From: Candidatus Micrarchaeota archaeon
Lineage (GTDB): Archaea > Micrarchaeota > Micrarchaeia > Anstonellales > Anstonellaceae
DNA length: 64,000 nt
NCBI GenBank assembly: GCA_021814005.1
Contig: JAKAJC010000003.1
Location: 15,934-79,933, forward strand
Direction: 5' to 3'
The translations under genes and the position numbers were made by a program. Below the pieces are notes generated by a model. The model was given only the letters and a program-made list of their open reading frames with translations. It had not been told where the DNA came from and ran no database searches. Numbering within the stretch: position 1 is the first letter of the stretch; each line of letters begins with the position of its first letter. Below, one piece after another: positions 1,557-40,480 of the stretch.

Positions 1557-1600
1557 TTTTTTTTGCTTAATTTGCTGTTTTTGTTTTTTTTGCAAAGCCC
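1557..1600 (+). terminator. Oligo-T archaeal-type terminator downstream of the 498..1556 gene (ttttttttgcttaatttgctgtttttgttttttttgc).
   Basis: T-rich run immediately after the stop codon. Archaeal termination uses oligo-T tracts. Confidence 0.45.
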
Positions 1601-2436
1601 AGCTTCTTGTCGAAAAATCCGAACAGCTGTGACATCACAACCGGCAGCAGCGCGCCGTAAATCACGGCCAGCGGATATGTAACCACAATCCCGGCAATGG
1701 GGCCGGCCCATTCAACCCAGCCAAACGATGCCGCAGCCTCTTCTATCCCCGTGCTGATGAAACCGATGGCCAGCGGCAGCGGAATAACAAATATTCCTAT
1801 GACAATCAGGGCGAGAAAAATCTCCACCATGCGCCCCCGCGTGCGGTCGAAAGAGGTGCGGATGGAATATGCGGCATTGCCGTCTCCGCGCACAAAAATA
1901 AACGAGGCAAAACAGGTTCGGATGCAATGGATGAAAATCGCCACCAGCCATGCCATAAGTCCGATGCCGGCGATAAGCGCGGCGGCGTCGAACATGCTGT
2001 TCGAATCCTTGAGAACCGCGATGGGCGCAAGAACAAATCCGGCAGCAATAAACGCGAATGCGGGAATCAGCAGCCTTTTGTCATAGAGGCAGAAGAAATT
2101 CACCACAACCATTCGGGCGGTGAAAATCAGCCAGTCCAGCACGCCGGGAGCCGGCTTTTTCACAACAACGCCTGCCAAATTCATGGCAGCATGCAAAATC
2201 TTTGGCCAGAAATACATCTGGCTTATGATGAAAATCGCCATGGCGCCAAGCACGATGAGGCCGGTGGCCGCAGGATGGGTTTCCATCGTTCTGCTTGAAA
2301 TCACCGAGATTATGTCAAACATTGATGAAACAAAAACCGCAAGCACCACTAAGGAGAGCAGCTCCCGATTTCTGAATAGCTGCCAGCCTTTGCGCACGGC
2401 CGACAATGCGTCAAATGAAGCAGAAACAGCCACCAA
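1567..2436 (-). CDS. Polytopic integral membrane protein of unknown function, about 8 TM helices.
   Basis: ORF track. Multiple hydrophobic segments throughout (LSLVVLAVFVSSMFDIISVI, GLIVLGAMAIFIISQMYF, AFAFIAAGFVLAPIAVL and others). Basic C-terminal tail KKTKTAN. Confidence 0.6.
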   Translation of the reverse strand: MVAVSASFDALSAVRKGWQLFRNRELLSLVVLAVFVSSMFDIISVISSRTMETHPAATGLIVLGAMAIFIISQMYFWPKILHAAMNLAGVVVKKPAPGVLDWLIFTARMVVVNFFCLYDKRLLIPAFAFIAAGFVLAPIAVLKDSNSMFDAAALIAGIGLMAWLVAIFIHCIRTCFASFIFVRGDGNAAYSIRTSFDRTRGRMVEIFLALIVIGIFVIPLPLAIGFISTGIEEAAASFGWVEWAGPIAGIVVTYPLAVIYGALLPVVMSQLFGFFDKKLGFAKKTKTAN

Positions 2437-3630: not shown

Positions 3631-5064
3631 TCACTCGTTTTCATCTCTGGGCGGCTTCTTGGCCGGCGCTTTGGGGAGGGGCGGAGCTTTCGGGGGCGCG
3701 CCGAACAGCGGCAGAATAGGCCTGTGCGACACCCTCACGTCCTTGTCATCATCGTCATCAGGCCTCGACTGGCCGTAGTGCGGAATTGTCGGCCTGCTCG
3801 GCAGAATCGGCATGGTTGGAGAAGAAATATGCTGGGACGGGGTTGAGAGAGGCGGCCTGCCGAGCGCGGACGGCGGGCGCGTCGGGGGTGTGAGCGGATG
3901 TCCGGCAACCGCGCTCGTTGTCACACCACTCTTGGGCGTTTCTCCAACAAACGCCCTCTTGCTCAGCGAGAATGCCGGTCCGCCTTTGGCTTCTGGCAAA
4001 TGCACAGAAGATGCGGGCGTCTTGTAAGAGGAAACCGACGGCTTTGAATATGAAGATGCTGCCGGTCTGGAGAGGCCCGAGGGAGTGGAGGTGTGTTTTG
4101 AGTAAATCGAAGGCGTTGAAATGCCGTGCTTTGAGGCAAACGGGGAATCCGCCGTCTGGCCGGCAGATGCAGGCGTCTGTTTTGCTTTCGGAGCAGCCGC
4201 GCCCTGCGAACCCAATCCGGCTGCAGCGTGCGGGCCAACTGCCTTTGCATGCGGAACCCCGCCCGCAGCGCCTGTTTCGGCAATTTCTCTGCCTGCGCTG
4301 AATATGCTGCCAGTGCGCGTGCCTCCCGCCCCGAGCTTCGGCTTTGGTTTCACTTCTTTTTCTGGAATTTCGGCATCAACAAGCCGGTATCCGTTTTCAT
4401 CAATTGTTGTGAGATGGATGAGGTGCGCATGGGCCGAGCCGCGCATTTTCACCACTTCGAGAGTTCTCAGCCTTCTGTTTCCCTCCCGCATCCAGCCAAG
4501 ATGAATAAATCCGTCTGTCATTGCCTCGATGCCTACGCTTGTGCGTGGCAAATCCGGGTCGGGCGGCGTGACATCGCTTGCCGTGATAAGTGTAGTCACG
4601 CCCCATTTGCGGATTACATTGACAAGCTTCTGAATCGAGCGCTGCCTCTCGTCCCCGTCGCTCGAGAGCATGGCAAGCGGGGTGATGGAATCGAAAACAA
4701 CTCGCTCCACTCCGAGCGTGTCCACAAGCTCGAGAAGCGAGCCCTCCTGCTCCATGAAGCTGTTCAGCTCGCTTGAGGGGTATTCGATAAACACGACCTG
4801 CTTGTTTCGCTCCAATTCGGGCAGGTTCCAGTCGAACGCGCTCATGTTGGCGAAAATAGAATATTTGGGCTCGTTGAAAGAAAGATAGATGCCCGGCTCG
4901 CCGTTTTCCCGAAAACCGTTCACCAGAAACTGGGTTGCGAATGTTGTGCGGCCCGAGCCAGTGCTGCCCGAGACGGTGATTACGCTGTTTTTGGTGAATC
5001 CCCCGCCAATCATCTTGTCCAGTCCGGGTATTCCTGACGGCACTTTGGGAAAGAGCAGGTTCAT
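3631..5064 (-). CDS. KaiC/RecA-superfamily ATPase (single KaiC-like domain, ArlH/RadB-like) with a long (about 220 aa) Pro/Ser/Ala/Thr-rich low-complexity C-terminal tail ending in an acidic/basic patch.
   Basis: N-terminus GIPGLDKMIGGGFTKNSVITVSGSTGSGRTTFATQFLVNG (Walker A in KaiC/RadA context), then DSITPLAM and HLIHLTTIDENG. The tail carries repeated SYSKP/SSYKTP/IYSKHTSTP units, a DDDDDKD stretch and PPKAPPLPKAPAKKPP. Confidence 0.65.
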   Translation of the reverse strand: MNLLFPKVPSGIPGLDKMIGGGFTKNSVITVSGSTGSGRTTFATQFLVNGFRENGEPGIYLSFNEPKYSIFANMSAFDWNLPELERNKQVVFIEYPSSELNSFMEQEGSLLELVDTLGVERVVFDSITPLAMLSSDGDERQRSIQKLVNVIRKWGVTTLITASDVTPPDPDLPRTSVGIEAMTDGFIHLGWMREGNRRLRTLEVVKMRGSAHAHLIHLTTIDENGYRLVDAEIPEKEVKPKPKLGAGGTRTGSIFSAGREIAETGAAGGVPHAKAVGPHAAAGLGSQGAAAPKAKQTPASAGQTADSPFASKHGISTPSIYSKHTSTPSGLSRPAASSYSKPSVSSYKTPASSVHLPEAKGGPAFSLSKRAFVGETPKSGVTTSAVAGHPLTPPTRPPSALGRPPLSTPSQHISSPTMPILPSRPTIPHYGQSRPDDDDDKDVRVSHRPILPLFGAPPKAPPLPKAPAKKPPRDENE

Positions 5065-5111: not shown

Positions 5112-5672
5112 TTACTTCTTTTTCTCCCCTTTTTCTGCTTCTGCCTTTTTCTCCGCCTCTTCGGTCTTCTTGGCCTCGGCCAGAAGCTTCTGCCCCAAAG
5201 CTATGCGGAATGCCATCTGCTTCTCGAATTTGGCCTTCTCGGCCGGGTCAAACAGCTTTTTCTGGATAATGAACTGCGTCAAATCCTGCGCCATGGCCGA
5301 AATGCCCATCAGCGCCCTCTGCATCTCGCCAATCTCTATCTTGCTCTGGTTGGGCTCTTCAAGGTCGATTCCAACCGGTCCGTAAGCCATGGTGATGCGG
5401 GTGAGCGAGGGCAGGTCGTTAATCAGCATCGACACCTTGGCCGTGGATGAAAAGAGCTTGTCGCGCTCGGTGGGCTCGTCGATTTCGCCCACCGCGAAGC
5501 GCACGCCCTCCTCTTTTGTCAGCCTGCTCACAAACCCTACCATGCTCTCCTTGAGGCTCTGCTCGTCATTTGCGTGCATGTCGAAGTAGAAATGGACGTA
5601 ATATCCGCCGGTGCGGATAACCTGATGCTTGAGCTCCTCGAATTTGTGGTCGTCTGCAGTCATGTCATTCAA
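5112..5672 (-). CDS. Hypothetical protein with a Lys/Glu-rich C-terminal tail. Annotated start is TTG; ATG at 5663 is the likely start.
   Basis: ORF track. Globular-looking composition with a charged tail KKTEEAEKKAEAEKGEKKK. A TATA-like element and direct repeats lie upstream at 5685-5741. Confidence 0.5.
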   Translation of the reverse strand: MNDMTADDHKFEELKHQVIRTGGYYVHFYFDMHANDEQSLKESMVGFVSRLTKEEGVRFAVGEIDEPTERDKLFSSTAKVSMLINDLPSLTRITMAYGPVGIDLEEPNQSKIEIGEMQRALMGISAMAQDLTQFIIQKKLFDPAEKAKFEKQMAFRIALGQKLLAEAKKTEEAEKKAEAEKGEKKK

Positions 5673-5795: not shown

Positions 5796-7226
5796 CTATA
5801 GTTTGGGCGGCTTGTGCGCGAACCACATAATCTTGTATTTCCTCAGGCTGTGCCACACCACTATCGCCATGATGAACAAAAATACCAAATTGATGGCCAG
5901 CCACGTGTAGCCGCCCAACGGGGAGAGGGATTTCTCCACCTTCACCGACACTCCTTCGCCAGTGCCGCCGCGCGAGAGTCTGTCAAGGCTTAATGTCAGA
6001 TTTCTGCCAGACATTTCAACCGAGATGTTGTTGAGCATGGCAGTGATTTTTCCTTCCGGAAACTGCATCGCATAAGTGAACTGCACGTCGGCGCCGATGT
6101 CGCCCTGGGATTTGATGCGGGAGAGGTCATTGAACACAATGCCGCGCAGTCGGCCGGGCCCGAATTCCGCAGTGTTTGCCGCAAACTGGCCTGTGCTGTA
6201 TTTGGAGAGGGCGGTCATCAGCGTGCCGTTGTCCTCAACGCTCTGGTGCATCATCAGCAGGGCCCGCTCGCGGCTCGGCATGCGATAAACAAGCAGGTTG
6301 GACGCGTCTGGGCTTACTCCGGCCGGATATGCAACCTCGACAGCCAGCGTCTGGGCGCTTGCATTGCAGGGCATGCGCAGGCCCGCGGCGCCGATTTCAT
6401 CCAGTGTCCTGTTCACGGCATACGCATCACTGAGGTTCACCTGCCCTGTTTTGTAGGCGTCAGCACCAAATTCCGACTCCTGCTTGAAGCTGCACAATGC
6501 GCGCAGAATGCGCGTGCGCGAGAGGTTGATGCCATAATTCGCGCCCGGCGAGAGACGGAGGGTGAGGCCGCCGTCATTTCGTTCCACCCTGCACCCCAGC
6601 GTCTTGTCTCCGACACAGCCGTTTTGAGGCAGCTCGTCCGCGCGCCGGTCAATGTAGCTGTTGAGAAATGCGCGCAGGTCGCCTTTCTCCGCGGCCGTGC
6701 GGTCAGTATCATTCATCTTGCCGTATGCGAAAAAGCTTGGCAGGGGCGCGCGGCGGATTATGTATCTGCGCGTCTCTTTCAGCTCCAGCCAGTCGCGTGT
6801 TGTGTTGAAAATATAGAATCTGCCGTCAGGCTGCATCTGGCCGCTGATTTCAATGCCGCCATCCGCCTGCGCAGCGCATTTGAAAGGCGCCGCCACGCGG
6901 CCGCAGATGTCGCGGGCATATGTCCCTCCCTCGTAATACTCGGCGAGGCCTGATAGCAGAATTTCGCTGGCCTGCGGTCCCGCATCCTCGCTCAGCCTGC
7001 TTTGGGCAAGATAATCCTGCGTCTGGGCGGAGTTGAGGACCAGCCGCTCGCGCACCACTATGTCGGAATCTCCGCTCTCGTGGAAATCCTGCGAAATGTA
7101 AGTATGGTAAGTGACGCAGCCGGAAGAGAGCAGGAAAATGGCCGTCACGGCTGCAAGCATGATCAATGCTGGTCGCATAGGGGGCGTTTTGGGCTCAATC
7201 ATTTTAAGGCCTCGGCTAAGCAGCAT
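5796..7226 (-). CDS. Surface (lipo)protein paralog 1 of a 4-gene tandem family: N-terminal signal peptide with an LSSGC lipobox-like site, C-terminal conserved motif plus TM helix plus basic tail.
   Basis: N-terminus PALIMLAAVTAIFLLSSGCVTY. C-terminus GEGVSVKVEKSLSPLGGYTWLAINLVFLFIMAIVVWHSLRKYK. Many N-x-S/T sequons. The conserved terminal motifs are shared with the next three genes. Confidence 0.7.
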   Translation of the reverse strand: MLLSRGLKMIEPKTPPMRPALIMLAAVTAIFLLSSGCVTYHTYISQDFHESGDSDIVVRERLVLNSAQTQDYLAQSRLSEDAGPQASEILLSGLAEYYEGGTYARDICGRVAAPFKCAAQADGGIEISGQMQPDGRFYIFNTTRDWLELKETRRYIIRRAPLPSFFAYGKMNDTDRTAAEKGDLRAFLNSYIDRRADELPQNGCVGDKTLGCRVERNDGGLTLRLSPGANYGINLSRTRILRALCSFKQESEFGADAYKTGQVNLSDAYAVNRTLDEIGAAGLRMPCNASAQTLAVEVAYPAGVSPDASNLLVYRMPSRERALLMMHQSVEDNGTLMTALSKYSTGQFAANTAEFGPGRLRGIVFNDLSRIKSQGDIGADVQFTYAMQFPEGKITAMLNNISVEMSGRNLTLSLDRLSRGGTGEGVSVKVEKSLSPLGGYTWLAINLVFLFIMAIVVWHSLRKYKIMWFAHKPPKL

Positions 7227-7258
7227 AAAAAAGGAGAAAAAGGAAAAATATATTCAAA

Positions 7259-8461
7259 TCATTTCTTCGCCGTTTTTCTGGCGGCGGGCTTGCGGGCTGG
7301 CCGCTCTTCCGCTTCGGGCGCTTCGGCTGCCGGCTCCTCCCACTGCGGCGCGGGCGTGTCGTACACTCCCGTTGCCGGCTCATTGTACGCCTGCGCCTGC
7401 CTGCTTTTGCGGCCTCTTGAGAGCACCAGCAAAAGGATTACCAGCACGGCGACCAGCACCACCCATGTCCATGCGCCGATGGGCGAGACGGGCTTGGCTA
7501 TCTTCACCACGATTTTGCCGGGCCCGTATTTGTACATGTCGTCAACGTTCAGCACGAGCTTGCCGTCCGTGAGAGTCACGTTCTTTCCGTTGATTGTGAC
7601 GCTGGACGGCGTCTGCGGGAATTCGGCCGTATAAGTGATTGTGTGCTCAAACGGCGGCAGCGCGTCATCCGGGAAGCTGAAAGAGCTCATGCGGTAGTTG
7701 TTCTCATATGTCGTCCCGCCGGCCACGCCGCGGTTGAAGTCAATGACATTGTCGACCGTCTCGAACTTGAAGCGGTCGTAGAACGCCTTGAATTCGGGCG
7801 GCAGGTTCGAGGTGTCGAACATGCTGTCTGTTGTAATCATGCCGAACGCGAGGCCGATTTTGAGCCTCAGGGCCGGGTCTGCGATGTTTTTGTTCGAATA
7901 GCTCTTGAGGTACGAGAACATGCTCTTCATCATTGTTTTGGCGGTGTCTGTTACCGTCTTGTTCTGGCTGTAATAATAGCTGTTGAGCGGCACCTGGCTG
8001 ATTTCATATGTTTTGACAGACTCGAAATTCATCCAGTCCATCCTGTCTGAGTAGGCGTAGAACTGGCCGGGCGCAAGTTTGGCCTTCATCACCGCGTGCC
8101 CGTCCTCGACTACGCAGCTTTCCACACCAGTTGCCTGGTCGCACTGCCATTGCGCGTAGCCGCCGTCGCGGAAGTAGGAGCCCGTGCCGCTTATCATGAC
8201 ATTGATTATTGTCTGCATCTCGGCCGCGCTGGCGGCGTCATAGTCTGCGCCGGTGAGGGCCTGGTTCGCATAATAGCTCTTAATCGCCTTGGCCATCAGG
8301 TCATCCACCTGGCTTGAGTAGGCGGTGTAATCCCGCAGCGTCAAATCGGAGGAGCCGTCAGCGTAGAATTTCTGCCCGGCCTCCTGCGTGATGGTGATGC
8401 AGCCCGAGAGGGCCAGCAGCATGGCGACGGCCATTGCAAACGCGTAATGCGCGAATTTCAT
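7259..8461 (-). CDS. Surface (lipo)protein paralog 2 (signal peptide, LSGC lipobox, C-terminal PxG-TW motif plus TM plus basic tail).
   Basis: N-terminus MKFAHYAFAMAVAMLLALSGCITITQEAGQKFYADGSSDLTLRD. C-terminus GPGKIVVKIAKPVSPIGAWTWVVLVAVLVILLLVLSRGRKSR. Shares the KTYEI motif with paralogs 3 and 4. Confidence 0.75.
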   Translation of the reverse strand: MKFAHYAFAMAVAMLLALSGCITITQEAGQKFYADGSSDLTLRDYTAYSSQVDDLMAKAIKSYYANQALTGADYDAASAAEMQTIINVMISGTGSYFRDGGYAQWQCDQATGVESCVVEDGHAVMKAKLAPGQFYAYSDRMDWMNFESVKTYEISQVPLNSYYYSQNKTVTDTAKTMMKSMFSYLKSYSNKNIADPALRLKIGLAFGMITTDSMFDTSNLPPEFKAFYDRFKFETVDNVIDFNRGVAGGTTYENNYRMSSFSFPDDALPPFEHTITYTAEFPQTPSSVTINGKNVTLTDGKLVLNVDDMYKYGPGKIVVKIAKPVSPIGAWTWVVLVAVLVILLLVLSRGRKSRQAQAYNEPATGVYDTPAPQWEEPAAEAPEAEERPARKPAARKTAKK

Positions 8462-8486
8462 GGTTCATAACCTCCGTTTATTGCGC

Positions 8487-9944
8487 TTAGCCGCTCTCTC
8501 TTTTGCTGCTGCCCATGGCGGCCTTGAGCACAAACCACGCTGCCACCAGAATAATCAGAAGCAGCGGGATTGCCCATGTCATCGCGCCGAAGGGCGAGAG
8601 TTCCTTTTCGGTCTTTACAACAATGCGGCCCTTGCCAAGCGCGGTCATGTCCGCGAGCGTCAGCTTGAAGCCGTTGCCGTCCATCGGCACGTCCTTGCTT
8701 CCGACCTTGGCGCTCACCACGTGGTCGGGGAAGTTCGCCGCATAGGTGAAGCTCACCTTGAAGTTGACCTGGCTGCCAGTGTCAACCAGCTTGCCCAGCG
8801 TTTCGTTGATGTCTGCAAAATCCATCTGGCTGATTTTGCCGTCGCGGAAATTGACAAGATAATACGACAGGTTCGCTCCGTAGCGGTCAATTGCCGACTC
8901 GAAGCTCGAGTCTGTGCTGACCTGCCTGAACGCGTCAGACACGTTCTGCATTATGCTGGCCTTGGACATGAGGGGCGTGACATCCGCGCTTGTCTTGTTC
9001 ACCGCGTGCCGGTTGCTGTAATTCTCGTCGTACTCGTATGTCTCCTCTTCTGTCACCATAACCAAGCTCTTGGAGCTGGCGGTGCATGGCATGTCAAGCA
9101 CAAGACCTTTGGAATCCGGAGTCTTGCCGACCATGGTCTTGGACTGCACATAGGGGCCGAGCTTGCTGGCGTTTATTTCCTTGAGATAATAGAATCCTTC
9201 CGGCAAATCTCCGGCAACTTCGGTGAGCTCCTCCTCACTCTTGTCGCTGCATCCGGCCCACAATATCTTGGCGTCGGATGAGAGGAACGAACTGCCGCTT
9301 GTGATGTTGAAGCGGGCGTTGCCGCCTGAAGTCGAGAGCACCTCGCAGGTGAATGGGTATGCCGAATAGCAGATGAAGTCGGTGGTGATGAAGTTGTCAA
9401 GCTCTGTCTTTAGCGCCGGTGTGAAGCGGTCGGCAAAGCTCTTGAGGAACTTCTGGCCGAACTCGCGGCCGGATTTGCCCTCGGCCGCGAAATAGAACAC
9501 TGTCGGCACCCTTTCTATCTCATATGTCTTGACCTCTTTCAGCGAGGCCCAGTCGGTGCTTGTGGTGACCGTGTAGAAGTCGCTGCCGCTCTTGAGCTGG
9601 GCTGTCAGATGCACGGCGCTTTCGGAATTGACAGTGCATTTGGCCGAGCTCTTGGCCTGGTCGCAGATGGCGTTGGCATAACTGTTGAACGCGAGGTCTG
9701 TGATGCGCACGCCGAGTTTGGCGTATTTGACCGGTATGCCGCCGCTCAAATACCCGCTGTTTGAGAAGAGCGATTCCATCATGCCGATAATCTCCTTGTT
9801 CACGCTGATTTCGTGGTCTATGACAAGTTCGGACGTGCCGTCGGGCCTAAACGTCTGCACCGTGTCATGGGTGAGATTGACGCAGCCGGACGAGAGAAGC
9901 AGTCCGATTGCGGCGAGCGCAAAGAGCAGAATCGAGTTCTTCAT
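8487..9944 (-). CDS. Surface (lipo)protein paralog 3 (signal peptide, LSSGC lipobox, C-terminal motif plus TM plus basic tail).
   Basis: N-terminus LLFALAAIGLLLSSGCVNLTHDTVQTFRPDGTSELVIDHE. C-terminus GKGRIVVKTEKELSPFGAMTWAIPLLLIILVAAWFVLKAAMGSSKRESG. Collinear with paralog 4 (AICDQAKSSAKCTV, KTYEIERVPTVFYFAAEGKSG, ILWAGCS, MVGKTPDSKGLVLDMPC). Confidence 0.8.
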   Translation of the reverse strand: MKNSILLFALAAIGLLLSSGCVNLTHDTVQTFRPDGTSELVIDHEISVNKEIIGMMESLFSNSGYLSGGIPVKYAKLGVRITDLAFNSYANAICDQAKSSAKCTVNSESAVHLTAQLKSGSDFYTVTTSTDWASLKEVKTYEIERVPTVFYFAAEGKSGREFGQKFLKSFADRFTPALKTELDNFITTDFICYSAYPFTCEVLSTSGGNARFNITSGSSFLSSDAKILWAGCSDKSEEELTEVAGDLPEGFYYLKEINASKLGPYVQSKTMVGKTPDSKGLVLDMPCTASSKSLVMVTEEETYEYDENYSNRHAVNKTSADVTPLMSKASIMQNVSDAFRQVSTDSSFESAIDRYGANLSYYLVNFRDGKISQMDFADINETLGKLVDTGSQVNFKVSFTYAANFPDHVVSAKVGSKDVPMDGNGFKLTLADMTALGKGRIVVKTEKELSPFGAMTWAIPLLLIILVAAWFVLKAAMGSSKRESG

Positions 9945-9954
9945 AGATACACCA

Positions 9955-10030
9955 CCATTTTCGCACGATTAAATAAAATGAAAAAACAAAAATGAAATGA
10001 AAAATAAAAACAAAAAACAATTTAAAAAAA
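9955..10030. terminator. A-rich (T-rich on the coding minus strand) low-complexity spacer between paralogs 4 and 3. Likely an oligo-T terminator for paralog 4 plus an AT-rich promoter/TATA region for paralog 3.
   Basis: Sequence aaataaaatgaaaaaacaaaaatgaaatgaaaaataaaaacaaaaaacaatttaaaaaaataaaaaa stands out as AT-only in a 60% GC context. Confidence 0.4.
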
Positions 10031-10050
10031 TAAAAAACGGCCCGCGCGGC

Positions 10051-11610
10051 TCACATCTGCGGCTGCTGCGGGGGCTGCTGGCCGGCGTATGTCGTCGGAG
10101 GCACGGTGTTGAGGTTTGCCGGCTCTTTGGGTTTGCGCCCGAGGAACCAGACCAAAAGTGCCAGCAATACGACAACTACAATCGCTCCTCCGAAGAGGAC
10201 AACGGGGTCGAGGCCGAATATCTTGCCGTTCGACTCGCTGGCCGGAACCGGCAGCGGTTTCTCGGTCTTTACCACGATTTTTCCCTTGCCCATGCGGACG
10301 AGGTCTGCGAGGGTGACCTTGAAGCCGTTGTTGCTGACTGCAATGGCCGTGCCGCTGCCGCCGACAACGCTTGTTACCGTGCCGGGGAAGCTGGCCGCGT
10401 AAGAGAGCTCGACATCAATGGTAATGTTGGCTGTCTCAAGCTGGCTCTGCGTTTTTGTGATGCTGTCCTGCATCTCCTCAAGCGTGGTGGAGTTGCCGAT
10501 AGTGCCTTTCTCGAGGTCTATGTTGAGCGCGTCAAGCTCTATGGGCCCGATTGGCGTGTCGTTGACCGGAATCTGGCTGATGTTTTCCTCCAGCTTGACC
10601 AGGCCGGCAACCAACTCGGCTTTCATGCTCTCCTTGGAGAGCAGGGCGTAGGTGTAAACAGTCGGCGCTATCGTGATGTTGGCTCTGGCCGCGTAGGAGC
10701 TCACCGGCGTTGCCGCCACAACAAGCGTCTTGGTGTCGTTGGACGGGCAGGAAAGCGACAGTTCAAGGCCTGTAACATCCGGTGTCTTGCCGATTGTCAT
10801 CTTGCGGCTCACAACCGCTGCGGCCTCGGTCTCGTTCATGTCCGAAATGTCGCTGACGTTGCGGGCGCTGCAGCCGGCCCACACGAGTTTGGCCGCAGGC
10901 ATGAGCCCGCCGCCCGAGCCGATGAGGCGCACATTGATGTTATTGCCGCTGTTCGACACGACATCGCAGCCGTACGGGCTTATGCCCAAGCAGTAGTAAT
11001 TGGTGGTGATTATCGAGTCAATGTCGCCGGGCAGCGTATTCTTGTAATAGCTTGTGAAGCTCTTTACAACTCCGCTCATAAACTCGGTGCTTGTCTTGCC
11101 CTGCGCTGTGAAATATGTTACTGTAGGGATTTTCCTTATCTCATAAGTGCGGATTTGTTTGGGGGCGGACGCGTTGGTGGTGTCGTTCACCACTGTCATG
11201 GTGTAGAATCCGTTTCCGGCACTGAGGCTGCCGACCACATGAATCTTGTTGTCAGGCCCGACCGTGCATGTGGCGCCCTTCATGTCAGCGCAAATCGCCT
11301 TGGCATATGCCTCGCTGGTGCGCTGAATCAGGCGCTCTATCAGCATGTAGTTTGTTTCCGTAATTGTCGGGAGCATGACATTGACCAGGCTCTTTATCTG
11401 GGTGATGTCGTTCTGCGGAAGCGCGAACTGGTGGTCTATGACGATTTCAGACGTGCCGTCCTCCTTGAAGGTCTGGGTGGATGTGTGCATGATGGTGCAT
11501 CCGGACAAAAAGAGCAGACCTGCAAGAAGAATTACCAAAAGAGCCGAAACTTTCATATCTAACACCACCGCTCCTCCACGAGAGAAGAAGCCACTCGAAT
11601 ATGCTTTCAA
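10051..11610 (-). CDS. Surface (lipo)protein paralog 4 (signal peptide, LSGC lipobox, C-terminal motif plus TM plus basic/Pro-Gln tail).
   Basis: N-terminus MKVSALLVILLAGLLFLSGCTIMHTSTQTFKEDGTSEIVIDHQ. C-terminus GKGKIVVKTEKPLPVPASESNGKIFGLDPVVLFGGAIVVVVLLALLVWFLGRKPKEP. Collinear with paralog 3. An ORF on the + strand here is rejected. Confidence 0.8.
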   Translation of the reverse strand: MKAYSSGFFSRGGAVVLDMKVSALLVILLAGLLFLSGCTIMHTSTQTFKEDGTSEIVIDHQFALPQNDITQIKSLVNVMLPTITETNYMLIERLIQRTSEAYAKAICADMKGATCTVGPDNKIHVVGSLSAGNGFYTMTVVNDTTNASAPKQIRTYEIRKIPTVTYFTAQGKTSTEFMSGVVKSFTSYYKNTLPGDIDSIITTNYYCLGISPYGCDVVSNSGNNINVRLIGSGGGLMPAAKLVWAGCSARNVSDISDMNETEAAAVVSRKMTIGKTPDVTGLELSLSCPSNDTKTLVVAATPVSSYAARANITIAPTVYTYALLSKESMKAELVAGLVKLEENISQIPVNDTPIGPIELDALNIDLEKGTIGNSTTLEEMQDSITKTQSQLETANITIDVELSYAASFPGTVTSVVGGSGTAIAVSNNGFKVTLADLVRMGKGKIVVKTEKPLPVPASESNGKIFGLDPVVLFGGAIVVVVLLALLVWFLGRKPKEPANLNTVPPTTYAGQQPPQQPQM

Positions 11611-11637: not shown

Positions 11638-12801
11638 TTATTTTTGTCTCCCGATAACCAGCAGGTCATTGCCAACATTTTGCGTCAGAACCGTTCGCAT
11701 GGATTTTGAAATTGCGCGCGACAGCCGCAACTCGGAGGGCGAGGGAGGATATTTCTTCCCTCTTCGCTTAGAAGCTACGAACAGCATCAATTCATCCGCC
11801 TGTTTCTGCTCGATAAAAGAGGCGGCCAGAGACGGCCCGCCCTCGCACAGCACGTGGTTTGTGCCGCATTTTCCCAAATGTTTCAGCACGGCCGACAGGT
11901 CAAGCTGACCGTGTTGGGCGGCCGGCCGCTTTTTGATGTCGGGCACAATCCACACTTCTATTTTCTTTTTTCTCTCAAGCGTCTCTTTTCTTTTTTTCGC
12001 CTCTCCCGCCCTTGCCTCTTGCCCGCAAACAACGAGCGCGTTTCTGTCTTTGAGCACTTTGGCGTTCAGCGGGACCCGCAGTTCAGGGTCAATAATCACG
12101 CGCAGCGGGTCATGGCCTTTTTCTTTTCCCGGCAAACGCGTGGTGAGCTGCGGATTATCGGCCAGCACAGTTCCGATGCCGATAACAAGCGCGCCAACCT
12201 GATTTCGCAGCCGGTGCACCATGAGGCGGGCTTGCGGACCCGAAATCCAGCGCGGCTCGTCCGGGCGGGTGATAAATCTTCCGTCAGCCGTCTGCGCCAT
12301 CTTGAGCGTGACAAACGGCATGCCGGTTTTCGCATGCTTGACAAACGCCTTGTTGATTTCGCGGGCTTCTGACCTGAGAACGCCAAAAACGGTCTTCACG
12401 CCCGCCTTTTTCAGCTCTTTTTCTCCGCCCCCCTTTACTTTTGGATTCGGGTCTTTCATTGCAAAAACAACGCGCCCGATGCCCGCCTTCAAAATCGCTT
12501 TTGTGCAGGGCGGCACTCTTCCGAAATGGTTGCAGGGCTCCAAATTGACGTAAAGGGTGGAGTTTGGGAAAAGAAGATGCGCGCGCTTGCGCCCGAGTCG
12601 CCGGCATGCATCATTTATTGCCTCAACTTCGGCATGTGGCTCGCCCGCTTTGCGATGAAATCCTTCGCCGATTATTTTTTTGCTTTTGTCATCCACGATG
12701 ACTGCGCCAACAAACGGATTCGGGGCCGGCCGGCCGCGGGCCGCCAAGTGAAGGCAGCGGGACATGAAATGGCAATCTTCAAGAGAGCCCATACGCGCCA
12801 C
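11638..12801 (-). CDS. ribD: Bifunctional riboflavin biosynthesis protein RibD (diaminohydroxyphosphoribosylaminopyrimidine deaminase / 5-amino-6-(5-phosphoribosylamino)uracil reductase), bacterial type.
   Basis: Deaminase motif NPFVGAVIVDD...GFHRKAGEPHAEVEAI and PCNHFGRVPPC (zinc site). C-terminal reductase domain GKCGTNHVLCEGGPSLAASFI. Confidence 0.8.
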   Translation of the reverse strand: MARMGSLEDCHFMSRCLHLAARGRPAPNPFVGAVIVDDKSKKIIGEGFHRKAGEPHAEVEAINDACRRLGRKRAHLLFPNSTLYVNLEPCNHFGRVPPCTKAILKAGIGRVVFAMKDPNPKVKGGGEKELKKAGVKTVFGVLRSEAREINKAFVKHAKTGMPFVTLKMAQTADGRFITRPDEPRWISGPQARLMVHRLRNQVGALVIGIGTVLADNPQLTTRLPGKEKGHDPLRVIIDPELRVPLNAKVLKDRNALVVCGQEARAGEAKKRKETLERKKKIEVWIVPDIKKRPAAQHGQLDLSAVLKHLGKCGTNHVLCEGGPSLAASFIEQKQADELMLFVASKRRGKKYPPSPSELRLSRAISKSMRTVLTQNVGNDLLVIGRQK

Positions 12802-12802
12802 T

Positions 12803-13480
12803 CTATTTCAGCCAGTGCCCCATCTTCTCTTTTTTTGTTCTGAGGTATTTTTTGTTTGTGCCGTTCGGCTTGGTGAGAAGCGGCAGGTGGCCTTCCACCT
12901 TGATGCCGCATTTCTGCACGCCCGATATCTTGAGCGGGTTGTTTGTAATCAAAAGAACGGATTTCACTCCCAAATCATGCAAAATGCAAGCTGCGGCGGT
13001 ATAATCGCGCTTGTCTTCCAAAAATCCGAGGCGCAGGTTGGCCTCCACCGTGTCCAGCCCCTTGTCCTGCAAAGCATATGCCTTCATTTTGTTTGCAAGC
13101 CCGATTCCGCGCCCTTCCTGGTCAAGATGAATGAGCACGCCCGTGCCTTTCTTCTGAATGTACTTCATGGCTTTCTCCAGCTGCGCGCCGCAGTCGCAGC
13201 GCAAAGAGCCGAGCGCGTCCCCTGTAACGCATTCTGAATGCAGGCGCACTGGCACTCTTTGCGCCCCTTTCAATTTGCCTTTGAAGAGGGCAAGATGAGT
13301 CGGCCCTTCCGGCTCTCCTCCAGCCCCGCATTTTCCTTTCTCCTGATATGCCCAGAGCTTGAACTCGCCGTATTTTGTGGGCAGAACCGTGGTGGCCACG
13401 CGCGTAAGGCCGTTCGGAGTCGGTGCGGAATTTGTCGGGGCCATTTCAACCTGCTCCTGGGCCGCACTTGAGGCCGGCAA
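12803..13480 (-). CDS. ribA: GTP cyclohydrolase II (RibA). Start is probably the ATG at 13446 (overlaps upstream stop as TAATG/TGATG).
   Basis: HSECVTGDALGSLRCDCGAQLEKAMKYIQKKGTGVLIHLDQEGRGIGLANKMKAYALQDKGLDTVEAN is the diagnostic GTP cyclohydrolase II zinc/Cys and catalytic region. Confidence 0.8.
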   Translation of the reverse strand: MPASSAAQEQVEMAPTNSAPTPNGLTRVATTVLPTKYGEFKLWAYQEKGKCGAGGEPEGPTHLALFKGKLKGAQRVPVRLHSECVTGDALGSLRCDCGAQLEKAMKYIQKKGTGVLIHLDQEGRGIGLANKMKAYALQDKGLDTVEANLRLGFLEDKRDYTAAACILHDLGVKSVLLITNNPLKISGVQKCGIKVEGHLPLLTKPNGTNKKYLRTKKEKMGHWLK

Positions 13481-14213
13481 TCAACTTCCGATAAACCTGT
13501 TCATCCTGGCCCATCAGCATCATCGGCCGATTCCCGCACCGGCCGCCCATAATCGCAATTACCGGTTCTCCATACATCCTGCCTTTGATGGCGCAGCCCT
13601 CGACCATGCCGCTGCTTATCCATTCAACGGTCGCGTTCGCAAACCACTCTCTGACTACACCCTGTTTTCTGATGAGGTCTGTATCCGAGACCGGTGTTCC
13701 TGCATACTGCGCATCTGAGGCTTCCAGCATAAGGCCCGGGAGCGAGTCATTGCAACCTGCCTCGTCAATCCAGGCTTTTGAAAAGTCAGACGAGAATGCG
13801 ACGGCTATGGTATCATTCGTCTTCTGGTTCTCTAAAAGCACTTGGCTGATGAGGTCATTGCTGGAAACCACTTTGATTTGCGTGTTAATGGAAGAGTCAT
13901 TGCTCTGGTCAACCATCGAAATCCATCCATCTGGATAATCGAAGGAATACCCTCCTTGCACAGGACTGAAATAATGGTATCCTCCAGAAATCTTGGTGAT
14001 GGTCGGAGGTTTGTATGTGTTTTTCATCTTATCCCAGATGGCGGAATTATTGATGAAGGCCGGAGCGGGCACATCCAAATTTCCTTGCTTTGGTGCCTGA
14101 TTCTCATTGGCTTTCGGAGCAGCCATCCAAAGCACAGCCACTACAACCAGCACGGCCAGTATGACAAATGTCAGATATGTCAAATAGTTTTTTTTCTTCA
14201 AAGAGTCTTCCAT
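13446..14213 (-). CDS. Membrane-anchored (N-terminal TM) extracytoplasmic protein of unknown function, embedded in the riboflavin operon.
   Basis: N-terminal helix LTYLTFVILAVLVVVAVLWMAA. The remainder is Ser/Asn/Asp-rich with sequons (NDSS, NDT, NDS, NAT) and a C-terminal Cys pair. No recognizable Rib enzyme motifs. Confidence 0.55.
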   Translation of the reverse strand: MEDSLKKKNYLTYLTFVILAVLVVVAVLWMAAPKANENQAPKQGNLDVPAPAFINNSAIWDKMKNTYKPPTITKISGGYHYFSPVQGGYSFDYPDGWISMVDQSNDSSINTQIKVVSSNDLISQVLLENQKTNDTIAVAFSSDFSKAWIDEAGCNDSLPGLMLEASDAQYAGTPVSDTDLIRKQGVVREWFANATVEWISSGMVEGCAIKGRMYGEPVIAIMGGRCGNRPMMLMGQDEQVYRKLIAGLKCGPGAG

Positions 14214-14237
14214 TTTTTCATCCTCTTCGGCATCTGC

Positions 14238-14684
14238 TTATTCGCGCGCCTCTTTTTGCGCATCAATCAGCCGCAGCGCGGCCCGCACCGCCCGCCGCGC
14301 GTATTCGTCGGCGCGCGCAGTCGCCTGCGCATGCGTTGCGCCCGGGCCGATGATTCCCAAACTGACCGGCTTTTTATAATGAATGCTGGCGCGCGCCAGA
14401 GCGTGCGCGCAGGCCTGCACCACAGCGTCATCGTGCTGCGTGTCGCCCTTGATGACCGCTCCCAATGTGGCAACTGCCTGCACGTCGCCGCGCTCGAGCA
14501 GTTCGGCAACAACAAGGGGCATGTCAAATGCGCCCGGCACATGGATGACGGCGGCTATTGCGGCGCCAGCCTTGCCAGCTTCATCCTCTGCCTGCGCAAG
14601 CATGCGGCCGGTAATCTCGTCATTGAAATCCGAGACGACAATGGCGATTGATTTTTTGGATGCGGAATTTGAAGTCGGGTTCAT
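14238..14684 (-). CDS. ribH: 6,7-dimethyl-8-ribityllumazine synthase.
   Basis: KKSIAIVVSDFNDEITGRMLAQA...VIHVPGAFDMPLVVAELLERGDVQAVATLGAVIKGDTQHDDAV is the lumazine synthase signature. Confidence 0.85.
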   Translation of the reverse strand: MNPTSNSASKKSIAIVVSDFNDEITGRMLAQAEDEAGKAGAAIAAVIHVPGAFDMPLVVAELLERGDVQAVATLGAVIKGDTQHDDAVVQACAHALARASIHYKKPVSLGIIGPGATHAQATARADEYARRAVRAALRLIDAQKEARE

Positions 14685-14707
14685 GTGGTTCGAGCCTCAA
14701 TCTTTTT

Positions 14708-15253
14708 TTACTTCTTTTTTATCTGGCCGGTGTCTTCCCTTCCCTGTCTCCTTCCCGTGCCTGCCCTCTCAACGAGCTTCTGCGGGTCTGCGACAAGCCA
14801 TACTGCATGGTGCGCGTGCTTGCGCGTGCGGTCCTCGGTCAGCGAGAAAAACGCGGCCTCATCGAGCGTGCCGTCCACCCTCTTTGCCTCGTTCATGTGC
14901 ACGAACACTTCGACTATGTGCTTGTTGGTGTTCAGTTTCGCCCACTGCAAACCCAACGACGCCTCGTGCGCGCACTGGGTGTCTATCGGCGCATTGCCCA
15001 CCATGCCAAGAGCCATCGCAATGTCGCAGCCGTCAATCGTGAGCAGGCGCTGGCACTCGACCGGCAAATCCTTTATGCCCGGCACGGTATGGCGGACGAT
15101 AGTGACGGAAGGATGATTCTTCTTCAGCTCGTCCACAGCCATGGCTCCCATGTCTATGCGCGAGAAAGTGGTGTCCACCACGCCTATTTTGACCTGTGTT
15201 CTGGCCATAAAATCAATCTTATCCTTTTTTCCCGCCCGCCTATAAAAAGACAC
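14708..15253 (-). CDS. ribC: Riboflavin synthase, archaeal type (lumazine-synthase-like fold). Probable start at Met16 (about 15208).
   Basis: MARTQVKIGVVDTTFSRIDMGAMAVDELKK...TVPGIKDLP matches the archaeal riboflavin synthase pattern (compare the M. jannaschii RibC N-terminus KVGIVDTTFARVDM). Confidence 0.75.
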   Translation of the reverse strand: MSFYRRAGKKDKIDFMARTQVKIGVVDTTFSRIDMGAMAVDELKKNHPSVTIVRHTVPGIKDLPVECQRLLTIDGCDIAMALGMVGNAPIDTQCAHEASLGLQWAKLNTNKHIVEVFVHMNEAKRVDGTLDEAAFFSLTEDRTRKHAHHAVWLVADPQKLVERAGTGRRQGREDTGQIKKK

Positions 15254-15370
15254 TCTTACTTTTCGCGCCCCATCGTCATCCTTTTAAATTCTCTTCATTT
15301 TGTTGTCGACAGGCATAAGCGACCAGAAAGCGTGCGAAAAGGCAATGTGCGACCAAGCAGAGGAGATGTC

Positions 15371-15886
15371 ATGAGCGGCCAGAGCACAGGCAATATCGTT
15401 GCAGCCAAGCCCGGAGTTTTCTCCAACTCGGCCCTTGTCACTTCAACCATTCCCAAACTCAACAATCCGCTTCTCTTGAACGAAAATCTCAGCCGCCGCA
15501 TCGACAGCCACAGCCGCCCGCAGCACATCCGCGAAACTTTCGAAACGCAGTTCAACTCTATTGACAAGCTTCTTGACACCCGCATTTCCAAGCTGGAAGA
15601 ATTGTCGGTCCATCCGCCAATAAGCGGGCCGGCCCAGTCTCTTGAATGGGTGAAAGTGCGCGATGAAATACAGTCCTATCTCAACGGCACAAACTCGTTT
15701 ATCCGCGAAACCACGATAGAAATCGACAATCTCGTTCAGGATGTAAAGCAGCAGAAAGACGCATTGTCGGCCAGCGATTATCTTGCCCTCAAAGGTCAGG
15801 CCCACTCATTGGTGCTGAAGAAAAACAAACTGCACGAGCTTTTCACTGAAATAAGCAATGGCTCGGCCTCAGGAACAATTCACTGA
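15371..15886 (+). CDS. Hypothetical protein (about 171 aa, predicted coiled-coil/Ser-Thr-rich), encoded on the opposite strand inside the rib gene run. This is the 3' part of track ORF 14648..15886.
   Basis: ATG at 15371 is preceded by a purine-rich ggagatgtc and TATA-like cctataaaaaga / ccttttaaattc elements. The upstream two-thirds of the long ORF are antisense to ribC and were discarded. Protein-like composition. Confidence 0.4.
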   Translation: MSGQSTGNIVAAKPGVFSNSALVTSTIPKLNNPLLLNENLSRRIDSHSRPQHIRETFETQFNSIDKLLDTRISKLEELSVHPPISGPAQSLEWVKVRDEIQSYLNGTNSFIRETTIEIDNLVQDVKQQKDALSASDYLALKGQAHSLVLKKNKLHELFTEISNGSASGTIH

Positions 15887-15900
15887 ATAATCAAGACTCT

Positions 15901-16587
15901 CTACAATTTCTTTTTTAATTCAGGTCCGTCGGTCGCAAACCAGCCGCGCCGCGCCGCCAGCTCTTTTGCCTCTTTCCAGCCCATGGCTTTGCCGTTGTCT
16001 GCAAGCATTTCGCATACAACCATGGCCGGCGTCAATCCTGCCGCGGCCGCCAGCGCTATTGCCAGCTCGGTGTGCCCGCCCCTCTTCTTCAACGAGCGCG
16101 AGACAAGAAGGGGCACGTGGCCTGGCGCATAAAATGATTTTGTGAATTCGGCCTGCATGTTTTTTGCGTCAGTTTTCACCATTTTCTCAAATTCTGTAAT
16201 GGTAAGGCTGCGGTCATTGTCTGTTATGCCCGTGTAGGTCTTGCGGCTGTTTATCCACACCGAAAAGGCCGGCGAATCCCCATACGGCGTCTTGTCGATT
16301 GCAAGCGCCGAGAGCACTTCGTTCCCGCTGGCATGCAGCAAATCAACTGCAAATCCGACTCCCAGCCTTTCGGCCGTCTCGCCGCTGGTGGCAAGGCAAA
16401 TCAGCCCGCCAGCCTCCTTGCGCATGAGGCCTATGTTCGCTGGCGTGGCGAACTTTGCGTGGAGAACCAAATCAGCCTCGCCCTCGCGCTCCAAATCATC
16501 CAGAATCACAACCGGCCTGCCCTCGCGCAGGGCGGCCAGCAGTGAATCAAACCAGTTGTCCATGAAAAAATCTCCAACAAAAATCAA
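15901..16587 (-). CDS. ribB: 3,4-dihydroxy-2-butanone 4-phosphate synthase (RibB). Probable start at MDNWFDSLL (about 16563).
   Basis: RPVVILDDLEREGEADLVLHA...GLICLATSGETAERLGV..HTELAIALAAAAGLTPAMVVCEML is the DHBP synthase signature. Confidence 0.85.
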   Translation of the reverse strand: MIFVGDFFMDNWFDSLLAALREGRPVVILDDLEREGEADLVLHAKFATPANIGLMRKEAGGLICLATSGETAERLGVGFAVDLLHASGNEVLSALAIDKTPYGDSPAFSVWINSRKTYTGITDNDRSLTITEFEKMVKTDAKNMQAEFTKSFYAPGHVPLLVSRSLKKRGGHTELAIALAAAAGLTPAMVVCEMLADNGKAMGWKEAKELAARRGWFATDGPELKKKL

Positions 16588-16602
16588 ATGCCGCGTCTTA
16601 AT

Positions 16603-17904
16603 CTATTTTCCCGCGGCCTGTTTTATTTTCTTGGCCGCGGCGTCAAGCTTGAGAGATTCCTGCTGCCCGCTTTGCAAATCCTTTAGCGCATACAGGCCTG
16701 TTTCAAGCTCTTTTTTGCCTACAATGATTGCGAATGGTATGGAATTGGCATTTGCATATTCCAGCTGCTTGCGCATGTTTCTCTCGTTCAAATCGGTTTC
16801 AACCGCAATTCCCTCGGCCCTCAGCTTGCGGGCGATTTCCATCACCTGCGCGCGCTGGGCCGGTTCAATTCCGATTTCAACAACAAGCGCCTGCGTGGGC
16901 GAGGCGGGGTTTTTGCTTTCCTTGCTCTCCTCTTCAAGCGCCATCAGGCGCTCTATCCCAAGAGAAATGCCGACAGCCGAATCGGGCTGGCCGTAAATTT
17001 CAAGCAATTTGTCATAGCGCCCGCCGCCGGCAACAGAGCCGATTCCGTCTCCGGCCTTTATCTCGAAAATCGGGCCGGTGTAATATCCAAGCCCGCGCAC
17101 AAGCGACAAATCGACGCGCACAGTGTCCAGTCCGTATTCCTGCTCCAGCATGCCGATAATCTGGCGCAGCTGTTCGGCGCCTTCTTTCGAATACACAGCC
17201 GCCTTCTTCAGCTGCGCCTCGTTGTCTCCGTCTTTCTCACCAGACACAAGCGCGAGAAGTTTTTTTGCGGCCGCGCCATCCACGCCCGCAGCCTCCAATT
17301 CAGCCCGCACCCCGTCCTCTCCGATTTTTTCCAGCTTGTCGAGCGCGCGGAACACTTCTGTCTCGGATTTGCCCAAGCCCAGTTTTTCCACCACTCCGCT
17401 CAATATCATGCGGCTGTTAAGCAAAATCTCGAATTTTGTGATGCCGATGGCCCCGAGCGCCTCGGCGGCCATTGCCAGAAGCTCTGTCTCGGCCCTCATT
17501 GACGGGCAGCCGATTATGTCCGCGTCCGCCTGCAAAAATTCGCGCATCCTCCCCTTTTGCGGCTCCTCGCGCCGCCACACCGGCGCCACGCAATAGCGCT
17601 TGTACGGCTTGGGAAGCGACTGGTTGGCAGCAAAGCGGGCAAGAGGAACAGTCAAATCAAAGCGCAGGGCAAGCCCGCTGTCCTCGATTTTGAACAACTG
17701 CCCCGCTATTTCGGCCGATGAAACCAGTCCGGCAGCACCCGCTTTGGCATTGAGCGTTTCGACCGATTCCATTGCCGGCGTGGAGAGGGCCTGATAACCC
17801 CACCTCCGGTAGACAGATTCAATGGAGCGCAGCATGCGCAGGCGGCGCTCCATGAGCGCGCCCGAATAGTCCCGCATGCCCTTTGGTGTCTGGTATTGAG
17901 TCAT
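16603..17904 (-). CDS. hisS: Histidyl-tRNA synthetase.
   Basis: MTQYQTPKGMRDYSG...RMLRSIESVYRRWGYQALSTPAMESVE (class II motif 1 region), GGRYDKL (motif 3/His-binding), C-terminal anticodon-binding domain. Confidence 0.85.
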   Translation of the reverse strand: MTQYQTPKGMRDYSGALMERRLRMLRSIESVYRRWGYQALSTPAMESVETLNAKAGAAGLVSSAEIAGQLFKIEDSGLALRFDLTVPLARFAANQSLPKPYKRYCVAPVWRREEPQKGRMREFLQADADIIGCPSMRAETELLAMAAEALGAIGITKFEILLNSRMILSGVVEKLGLGKSETEVFRALDKLEKIGEDGVRAELEAAGVDGAAAKKLLALVSGEKDGDNEAQLKKAAVYSKEGAEQLRQIIGMLEQEYGLDTVRVDLSLVRGLGYYTGPIFEIKAGDGIGSVAGGGRYDKLLEIYGQPDSAVGISLGIERLMALEEESKESKNPASPTQALVVEIGIEPAQRAQVMEIARKLRAEGIAVETDLNERNMRKQLEYANANSIPFAIIVGKKELETGLYALKDLQSGQQESLKLDAAAKKIKQAAGK

Positions 17905-25461: not shown

Positions 25462-25498
25462 TGCGTAGGCTTCTATCCAATCACCCTTGTTTCAGCCA

Positions 25499-40339: not shown

Positions 40340-40477
40340 ACCTACAATCCCGTAAGGGACCAGTTATCTCGATTCGGAAAAGCGCAAACGCGAAGGTTGG
40401 CGGTTTTCCGAGGTTTTTCGCCCGTGAGGCGAAAAAGCTCTTCGAGACTGGCGCACTACCGAGTTATGCGACACCGG
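40321..40477 (-). tRNA. tRNA-Ser (anticodon CGA) containing an intron of about 70 nt at the canonical 37/38 position. Type II tRNA with a long variable arm.
   Basis: Reverse complement reads GCCGGTG...CCAGT-CTCGAA[intron]A-ACTGG-TCCCTTACGGGAT-GTAGGTTCAAATCCTGC-CACCGGC-G. It has an acceptor stem, T-arm GTTCAAATC, a long variable stem-loop, and discriminator G as in tRNA-Ser. Confidence 0.6.
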
Positions 40478-40480
40478 CTT

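Follow-up and report, generated by a model that had tools for sequence, protein, structure and literature searches.

The stretch of DNA analysed here, 64,000 nucleotides of a Candidatus Micrarchaeota archaeon (GenBank assembly GCA_021814005.1, contig JAKAJC010000003.1, positions 15,934 to 79,933; hereafter the window), contains a tandem array of four related minus-strand genes, whose products we call P1 to P4. As judged from their sequences, these proteins belong to a Micrarchaeota-restricted family of exported, membrane-apposed proteins with a lipobox-like cysteine at the end of the signal peptide and a hydrophobic helix at the C-terminus. An earlier note on this DNA, made from the sequence alone, had described four open reading frames (ORFs) of 476, 400, 485 and 519 amino acids as a tandem array of old, 'doubly anchored' paralogues. 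All four ORFs are as described, and pairwise BLASTP E-values among them range from 2e-9 to 4e-63, at identities of 23-31%, in agreement with an old paralogous array.

Signal peptides, lipoboxes and membrane helices were called by hydropathy and pattern analysis. The N-terminal hydrophobic segment of each paralogue ends in SSGC or LSGC, which fits a PROSITE-type lipobox pattern. In P3, the predicted signal peptide ends in L-S-S-G-C with Cys21 (9882..9944, minus strand), and equivalents are found in P1, P2 and P4. A lipobox has been defined as [L/V/I]-3 [A/S/T/V/I]-2 [G/A/S]-1 C+1 at the end of a Sec or Tat signal peptide (PMC12462473). P2 and P4, with L-S-G-C, are strict lipobox matches; P1 and P3 have S-S-G-C with Leu at -4 and match the relaxed PROSITE-type pattern only. 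At the C-terminal end, every paralogue has a single hydrophobic helix and, after it, basic residues (in P3 8514..8582, minus strand, approximately residues 455-477, with a short basic tail), and the family motif L-S-P-[LFI]-G-x-x-T-W directly precedes this helix in P3 and its relatives. The tails after the helix comprise 14 residues in P1, 47 in P2, 5 in P3 and 25 in P4, and up to 82 in relatives; many family members end 0-5 residues beyond the helix. The double anchoring proposed earlier, a lipobox-like signal peptide combined with a C-terminal membrane helix, is thus predicted for all four proteins.

The same plan recurs across the family. Among 47 members of at least 200 amino acids, 42 show an x-G-C lipobox-like end, 44 a C-terminal helix and 39 both, and G20 and C21 (P3 numbering) are kept in at least 90% of 30 aligned members. 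The cysteine count of the mature protein is odd in 39 of the 42 lipobox-bearing members, with three cysteines in core-only and seven in long forms, which fits one lipobox cysteine plus one or three disulfide pairs. The remaining conserved cysteines would accordingly form one or three disulfides; two of the three conserved pairs, C192/C200 and C232/C287, lie in the middle domain of P3.

The C-terminal arrangement of a short conserved motif (L-S-P-L-G-x-x-T-W), a helix and basic residues resembles that of archaeosortase substrates (PGF-CTERM and others). However, cytoplasmic tails of 14-82 residues follow the helix in P1, P2, P4 and several relatives, which is at odds with a cleaved sorting signal. 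Given these long tails, and since no PGF, PEF or other CTERM model of NCBIfam matched at E <= 1, we rejected this candidate. The earlier note had suggested looking for an archaeosortase gene and for more family members. Neither was found within the 64-kb window, where general family scans of the multi-helix membrane ORFs returned no archaeosortase/exosortase-like or AglB-like family and tblastn no fifth family copy.

Confident AlphaFold2 (AF2) models were obtained for full-length P3 (predicted local distance difference test score, pLDDT, 79.8; predicted template modelling score, pTM, 0.72) and for the P2 ectodomain (pLDDT 90.4, pTM 0.88). In both, the first ß-strand starts one residue past the lipobox cysteine, and the last strand stops approximately 4-9 residues short of the membrane helix. 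These strand positions imply that the ectodomain is essentially linker-free at both ends, so that it would sit on the membrane and have no outward reach. The modelled core comprises an N-terminal hairpin together with long helices and additional strands, with a curved antiparallel ß-sheet packed on the helices.

P1, P3 and P4 have in addition a ß-rich middle domain of approximately 140 residues, which is missing from P2 (in P3 8967..9377, minus strand, approximately residues 190-326). Matches to immunoglobulin/fibronectin type III (Ig/FnIII)-like folds were seen for the insert-bearing P3 only. By subtraction of the insert-less form, the insert is predicted to be an Ig/FnIII-like ß-sandwich. 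This part of the protein may also be N-glycosylated. The earlier note had called all four proteins dense in N-x-S/T sequons, which holds for P1 (9 versus 2.4 in shuffled sequences), P3 (8 versus 3.8) and P4 (10 versus 4.6), but not for P2 (2 versus 2.2). Most sequons lie within the middle domain or C-terminal to it; of the eight in P3, the domain itself holds four. This excess is a trait of the lineage studied here and not of the family as a whole.

A Foldseek search of the PDB with the full-length P3 model gave nothing meaningful (template modelling score, TM-score, <= 0.16). The top structural match among PDB families is LppM (PDB 2nc8), a weak match with 7% identity in the structural alignment. 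LppM (Rv2171) of Mycobacterium tuberculosis has a lipobox (22ATGC25), a soluble domain spanning residues 26-185 and a C-terminal membrane helix (PMC5217060). It binds phosphatidylinositol mannosides and has been described as a new fold, an 11-stranded pseudo-ß-barrel closed by a helix (PMC5217060; PMC6151718). LppM and the present family have in common a signal peptide, a lipobox cysteine, a single compact ß-rich domain and a C-terminal membrane helix. At approximately 240 amino acids, the short forms are also of a length that an LppM-type architecture could accommodate. In contrast to LppM, the family is archaeal, and it has extra long helices, conserved predicted disulfides and, in the long forms, a putatively glycosylated ß-sandwich insert. 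That the top PDB match shares the unusual two-ended membrane topology of the present family is notable, yet the likeness between the models and this structure is too weak to claim homology.

Neither Pfam nor NCBIfam assigned a family to any of the four paralogues or of the 36 family members scanned (E <= 10), and profile searches against PDB sequences, made with both the long and the short forms (E <= 10), gave only noise from membrane helices. This agrees with the earlier note, which had recognised no S-layer, adhesin or binding-protein family and had named clear remote homology to a well-characterised family as grounds for dropping its proposal; the weak fold likeness to LppM is all that emerged in this direction. 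No published description of the family was found in the literature searched. Among 1.84 billion representative proteins, a profile search detected just 51 clusters at E <= 1e-3, of which 22 reached E <= 1e-30, numbers in which short forms are probably undersampled by a profile biased towards long forms. All named sources and matched genomes are Micrarchaeota or Bilamarchaeaceae. A search for related loci with the narrow motif [TV]EKELSP[LFV]G gave two loci from genomes and five from metagenomes, so that copy number and taxonomic spread are undersampled.

The weaker profile matches are short forms of 220-390 amino acids (some of approximately 240), which follow a plan of lipobox, D-G-S-S hairpin, C...C, F-Y-x-F, T-Y-x-V-E-M-P-G and C-terminal helix. 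An independent profile-profile test with hhalign finds short and long forms homologous (probability 99.4%, E 2e-21). Members are otherwise only approximately 17-30% identical to P3, and most of those found are single-copy genes. Expansion of the family nevertheless recurs: a tandem pair of long forms is present in loci L019 (28-2450) and L020 (2-1926), and in L014 two short forms (6301-7038 and 13999-14706) are separated by 7 kb.

Within the array, P3 and P4 are the closest pair (E 4e-63, 31% identity across 456 amino acids), followed by P1 and P3 (E 3e-34, 26% across 491) and P1 and P4 (E 7e-18). The match of P2 to the other paralogues is confined to the N-terminal ~190 and C-terminal ~90 residues (E 2e-9 to 2e-18). 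In a neighbour-joining tree, P3 and P4 pair at 97% bootstrap support, and P1 clusters with the single-copy syntenic proteins P0027 and P0028 at 99%; P2 joins the latter clade at 83%. The (P3,P4) and P1/P2 clades are not each other's closest relatives. On this sequence evidence, the array comprises two old subfamilies, (P3,P4) and (P1,P2), each of them duplicated. The earlier note quoted several motif blocks, every one of which occurs in P3 and P4 and, in weaker form, in P1 and P2. Its view of P1 and P2 as progressively more diverged has to be revised in favour of a separate old subfamily, one member of which, P2, is without the middle domain.

Related genomes show the same array with varying content. 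In L011, where the flanking genes are 87-94% identical, the order P4-P3-P2 is the same; the more distant L013 has P4-P3-P1, and P2 is absent. A further lineage (P0007) has an 84-amino-acid ORF at the position of P2, probably a P2 remnant, and a P2-like fragment of 83 amino acids exists in the database. By this comparison P2 appears dispensable in some lineages. A single insert-less member occupies the equivalent site in L007, a metagenome-assembled genome (MAG) of a more distantly related 'uncultured archaeon', in the order RibD, family gene, MJ0538, (CxxCxxCC), KaiC and TrpRS. A protein identical to P3 (P0001) and an identical locus are present in the MAGs GCA_027332495.1 and GCA_027332525.1.

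The earlier note had read the array as a set of diversifying host-interaction determinants. We estimated the ratio of non-synonymous to synonymous substitution rates (dN/dS) by the Nei-Gojobori method between orthologues, comparing the window with L011 and with L013; the pair P3-P4 was set aside, since synonymous sites are saturated at 31% identity. Against L011, dN/dS is 0.30 for P4, 0.21 for P3 and 0.17 for P2, compared with 0.22 for the flanking RibD, 0.16 for GTP cyclohydrolase II and 0.19 for DMRL synthase. Against L013, the values are 0.27 for P4, 0.23 for P3 and 0.35 for P1, with 0.16 for MJ0538 and 0.14 for KaiC. None of the tested regions exceeds 0.5. P4 is 88% identical to its orthologue in L011 and 65% in L013, and P1 is 62% identical to its L013 orthologue; orthologue identity of the family, at 87-90%, is similar to the 87-94% of neighbouring housekeeping genes. 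All four genes are functional and under purifying selection that is only mildly relaxed, and a gene-wide diversifying signal is absent.

The four genes lie on the minus strand between 5796 and 11610. P4, a long form, is an open frame of 519 amino acids up to a TTG at 11610 (10051-11610). Its true start is likely the ATG at 11556, giving a coding sequence (CDS) 10051..11556 of approximately 501 amino acids (MKVSALL...), because the orthologue P0010 begins MKWSFIF and a Shine-Dalgarno-like GGTGGTG, as at P3, lies upstream. P4 has the lipobox FLSGC, the middle ß-sandwich domain, the C-terminal membrane helix and a cytoplasmic tail of approximately 25 residues. P3 (8487..9944), also a long form, has 485 amino acids and served as the reference for the full-length model. 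P2 (7259..8461; 400 amino acids) is the core-only form, without the middle ß-sandwich and its four cysteines, and its cytoplasmic tail of approximately 47 residues is Pro/Glu/Ala-rich. The long form P1 occupies an ORF of 476 amino acids (5796-7226), for which we consider ATG 7202 the likely true start (CDS 5796..7202, 468 amino acids, MIEPK...), since the orthologues P0014 and P0036 begin MIEPKT, public gene calls give 468 amino acids and GAGG lies upstream. The third-codon-position GC content (GC3) of the family frames is 0.71-0.79, compared with values near 0.5 for long antisense ORFs across the array, which are spurious.

Three of the spacers are AT-rich (19-39% GC), as the earlier note had stated for the array in general; the exception is the one between P3 and P2 (8462..8486, minus strand), with 25 nt and 48% GC. 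It carries a ribosome-binding-like GGAGGT motif, and P3 and P2 probably share one transcript. In the P4-P3 spacer (9945..10050, minus strand, 28% GC), a GC-rich hairpin and a T-run can be read 3' of the P4 stop, followed by a TATA-like TTTATTTAA and by GGTGGTG 5' of the P3 ATG, a putative transcription stop and then start. The P2-P1 spacer (7203..7258, minus strand) is T-rich (19% GC in 7227-7258), with GAGG 5' of ATG 7202. A bacterial-type promoter and terminator scan gave nothing informative. The array was placed by the earlier note between a KaiC-like ATPase and the rib operon. The site is right, but an MJ0538-family gene (5112-5672) intervenes between the ATPase and P1.

How might these proteins work? 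The fullest explanation we can offer, which we regard as evenly poised between right and wrong, is that they are membrane-apposed, lipidated envelope glycoproteins built around an LppM-like module for lipids or glycolipids. AliA is the protein that lipidates archaeal lipobox proteins, in Haloferax with a thioether-linked archaeol (PMC12462473). As here, the signal peptides of the AliA/AliB-matured lipoproteins of Haloferax volcanii close with a lipobox-like motif whose cysteine is invariant. In contrast to the present family, which adds a C-terminal helix, those characterised are singly anchored and are mostly substrate-binding or redox proteins. In our model, P1 to P4 would be exported by a Sec-type route, the lipobox cysteine would be lipidated through an AliA-type thioether-archaeol pathway, as in Haloferax, and the signal peptide would be removed. 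The mature protein would then lie on the outer membrane face, held almost without linkers by a lipid at its N-terminus and a helix at its C-terminus. The most speculative parts of the model are that the core acts as LppM does in mycobacteria and binds or presents a lipid, glycolipid or other hydrophobic envelope component, that the glycosylated insert faces outward, and that the paralogues are subfunctionalised variants of the lipid-handling module. We consider improbable the far-reaching version of this idea, in which the family is an archaeal analogue or very remote homologue of LppM that is clamped flat on the membrane and captures, presents or exchanges lipids or glycans, possibly at a host interface, with paralogues differing in ligand or partner specificity.

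Several observations weigh against a lipidated, LppM-like module. The structural score against LppM is under the level that establishes homology, and sequence or profile likeness to LppM or to any other family is absent in the Pfam, NCBIfam and PDB profile searches, in which 2nc8 was not retrieved at E <= 10. As regards lipidation, P1 and P3 have Ser instead of Leu, Val or Ile at lipobox position -3, and no AliA-like or Lgt-like gene was recognised by Pfam or NCBIfam among the multi-helix membrane ORFs of the window, a scan in which no AliA model was searched. Gene neighbourhoods vary by lineage and point to no functional partner. Finally, the window contains genes for HMG-CoA reductase (27376-28710, minus strand; TIGR00532, E 3e-125) and a CDP-alcohol phosphatidyltransferase (33097-33693, plus strand). 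By its gene content, this Micrarchaeon thus appears to encode at least part of isoprenoid and lipid synthesis and is not obviously reliant on imported lipids.

The neighbourhoods themselves comprise the rib operon, MJ0538 and KaiC (window and L007), arginase together with a CxxCxxCC protein or a glycosyltransferase (L005 and L008), HMG-CoA synthase (L014), Sec61-beta (L016) and, in L010, an unrelated set with no neighbours in common with the others by sequence comparison. With contexts differing between lineages and no common partner, we rejected a shared gene neighbourhood as a clue to function.

It is possible, though on balance unlikely, that the proteins are structural components that tether or space a Micrarchaeota S-layer or organise the quasi-periplasmic space, with no ligand role. 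The Micrarchaeota S-layer protein SLP_Mh (Micr_00292, PF05123) is exported and glycosylated and has a mass of 101 kDa; its anchoring is unsolved, and a second, membrane-anchored stalk protein has been proposed (bioRxiv 10.1101/2021.04.28.441871). A structural role would be in line with the C-terminal membrane helix, the predicted disulfides, the Ig-like insert and the many sequons in this lineage, and a housekeeping envelope function fits the purifying selection and mostly single-copy conservation. However, the models contain no coiled-coil or stalk, and the domain hugs the membrane. An S-layer partner would also be expected more widely: approximately 50 family clusters compare with hundreds of Micrarchaeota-type HisRS clusters, so the family is not universal unless it has diverged past detection, and none of the loci examined has a linked S-layer gene. 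P1 to P4 share with SLP_Mh the phylum and the character of exported, presumably glycosylated envelope proteins, but SLP_Mh belongs to another family and has S-layer domains, none of which are found in P1-P4. That they are S-layer proteins themselves was rejected, as Pfam and NCBIfam gave no match to PF05123, PF05124, TIGR01567 or similar models.

We judge it rather improbable that an episymbiotic archaeon uses these proteins as adhesins or host-interaction determinants, which would have been amplified and would diversify so as to track host surfaces. This idea draws on the membership of the organism, as a Micrarchaeon, in the DPANN archaea (Diapherotrites, Parvarchaeota, Aenigmarchaeota, Nanoarchaeota and Nanohaloarchaeota), on tandem amplification not only in this lineage but also in at least one more (L019/L020), and on the variable content of the array, from which P2 has been lost or has decayed in relatives. 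Most sequons are, moreover, on the insert that would face outward, and the paralogues are just 23-31% identical. Yet dN/dS stays at 0.17-0.35 in every paralogue, compared with 0.14-0.22 in the flanking genes, and orthologues are about as conserved as their housekeeping neighbours. The paralogues are old, each a stable orthologue and not a recent copy, and relatives are mostly single-copy. The models give the membrane-hugging domain neither a linker nor a stalk with which a partner cell could be reached, and no repeats or cassettes point to programmed variation. The diversifying, host-directed role put forward in the earlier note is therefore not upheld.

It would be a little less probable still that the proteins are not lipoproteins at all, having instead an ordinary Sec signal peptide cut by signal peptidase I, or an uncleaved anchor, and thus being type-I or hairpin membrane proteins. 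The window does encode an archaeal-type signal peptidase I (53948-55012, minus strand). In line with this alternative are also the departure of P1 and P3 from the strict lipobox and the lack of a recognised AliA-like or Lgt-like gene in the window. The AliA family (arCOG02177) occurs in DPANN archaea, with some gaps (PMC12462473). On the other side, the G-C dipeptide is kept in the 42 of 47 otherwise divergent members counted above, the odd cysteine number leaves exactly the lipobox cysteine unpaired, and the folded domain begins right after this residue in the models. Many predicted Haloferax lipoproteins are substrate-binding proteins (context in PMC12462473), but a role as solute- or substrate-binding proteins of a transporter is very improbable and effectively refuted by fold and gene context, as there are no family or fold matches to such proteins, adjacent permease or ABC ATPase genes are lacking in five of the six neighbourhood types, with the L010 type compared by sequence only, and the ABC ATPase/permease pair of L016 lies approximately 3 kb upstream on the opposite strand with four genes between.

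Other features of the window and of the related contigs are recorded here in their own right. An ORF at 42420-43064 (plus strand, 214 amino acids, no family) has a lipobox-type signal peptide (...LLLAGC, Cys24), which suggests wider use of lipobox proteins in this genome. A GT4/AglH-like glycosyltransferase gene (24502-25461, minus strand) adjoins an ORF for 618 amino acids (25499-27355, minus strand) with approximately 12 membrane helices and no family match; the pair 24502-27355 possibly represents N-glycosylation or envelope-biosynthesis genes. The riboflavin operon is interrupted between GTP cyclohydrolase II and DMRL synthase by an ORF of 255 amino acids (13446-14213, minus strand) with an N-terminal membrane helix, several N-x-S/T sequons and no Pfam or NCBIfam family. 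This ORF is missing in L011, a close relative, and in the P0007 lineage, and might be an envelope gene that was inserted recently or that varies between strains. The ORF at 1567-2436 (minus strand, 289 amino acids), with approximately seven predicted membrane helices and no Pfam or NCBIfam match at E <= 10, is conserved beside TrpRS both in L001 and in L007 (26% identity in the latter), and could encode a membrane enzyme.

The KaiC-like ATPase next to the array (3631-5064, minus strand) matches PF06745 at residues 8-227 and has a Pro/Ser/Ala-rich, low-complexity C-terminal extension of approximately 250 amino acids; its orthologues are much shorter, with 368 amino acids in L007 and 384 in the P0007 lineage. 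A protein with the CxxCxxCC domain (PF03692) is encoded just downstream of the family gene in L005 (11347-11928) and, with a faint Pfam match, in L007 (7425-8237), which may be coincidence. An Rfam tRNA match of 158 nt (40321-40478, minus strand, 39 bits), missed by ARAGORN, implies a long intron and lies 3 nt from tRNA-Thr(CGT) (40482-40553, minus strand). On a related Micrarchaeota contig, L008, an SMC gene for 1670 amino acids (11999-17011, minus strand) contains an intein (Intein_splicing and LAGLIDADG). The window also has archaeal-type riboflavin genes and FEN1. Most named relatives of its HisRS are from Candidatus Micrarchaeota, Micrarchaeia or Bilamarchaeum, and the nearest named relatives, at 65-67% identity, carry the labels 'Candidatus Marsarchaeota archaeon' (one entry) and 'uncultured archaeon' (two entries).

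Taken alone, P1 to P4 represent an uncharacterised 'hypothetical surface protein' family of a type common in DPANN genomes. DPANN envelopes are little known past a few S-layer proteins, and the lifestyle of these archaea rests on surface contact and exchange with hosts. The family offers a concrete target for work on archaeal lipoprotein maturation outside haloarchaea, for envelope proteomics and electron cryotomography, and for lipid-binding assays. It would be the first archaeal case noted of a predicted lipobox surface protein with LppM-like two-point anchoring, here combined with an Ig-like insert.

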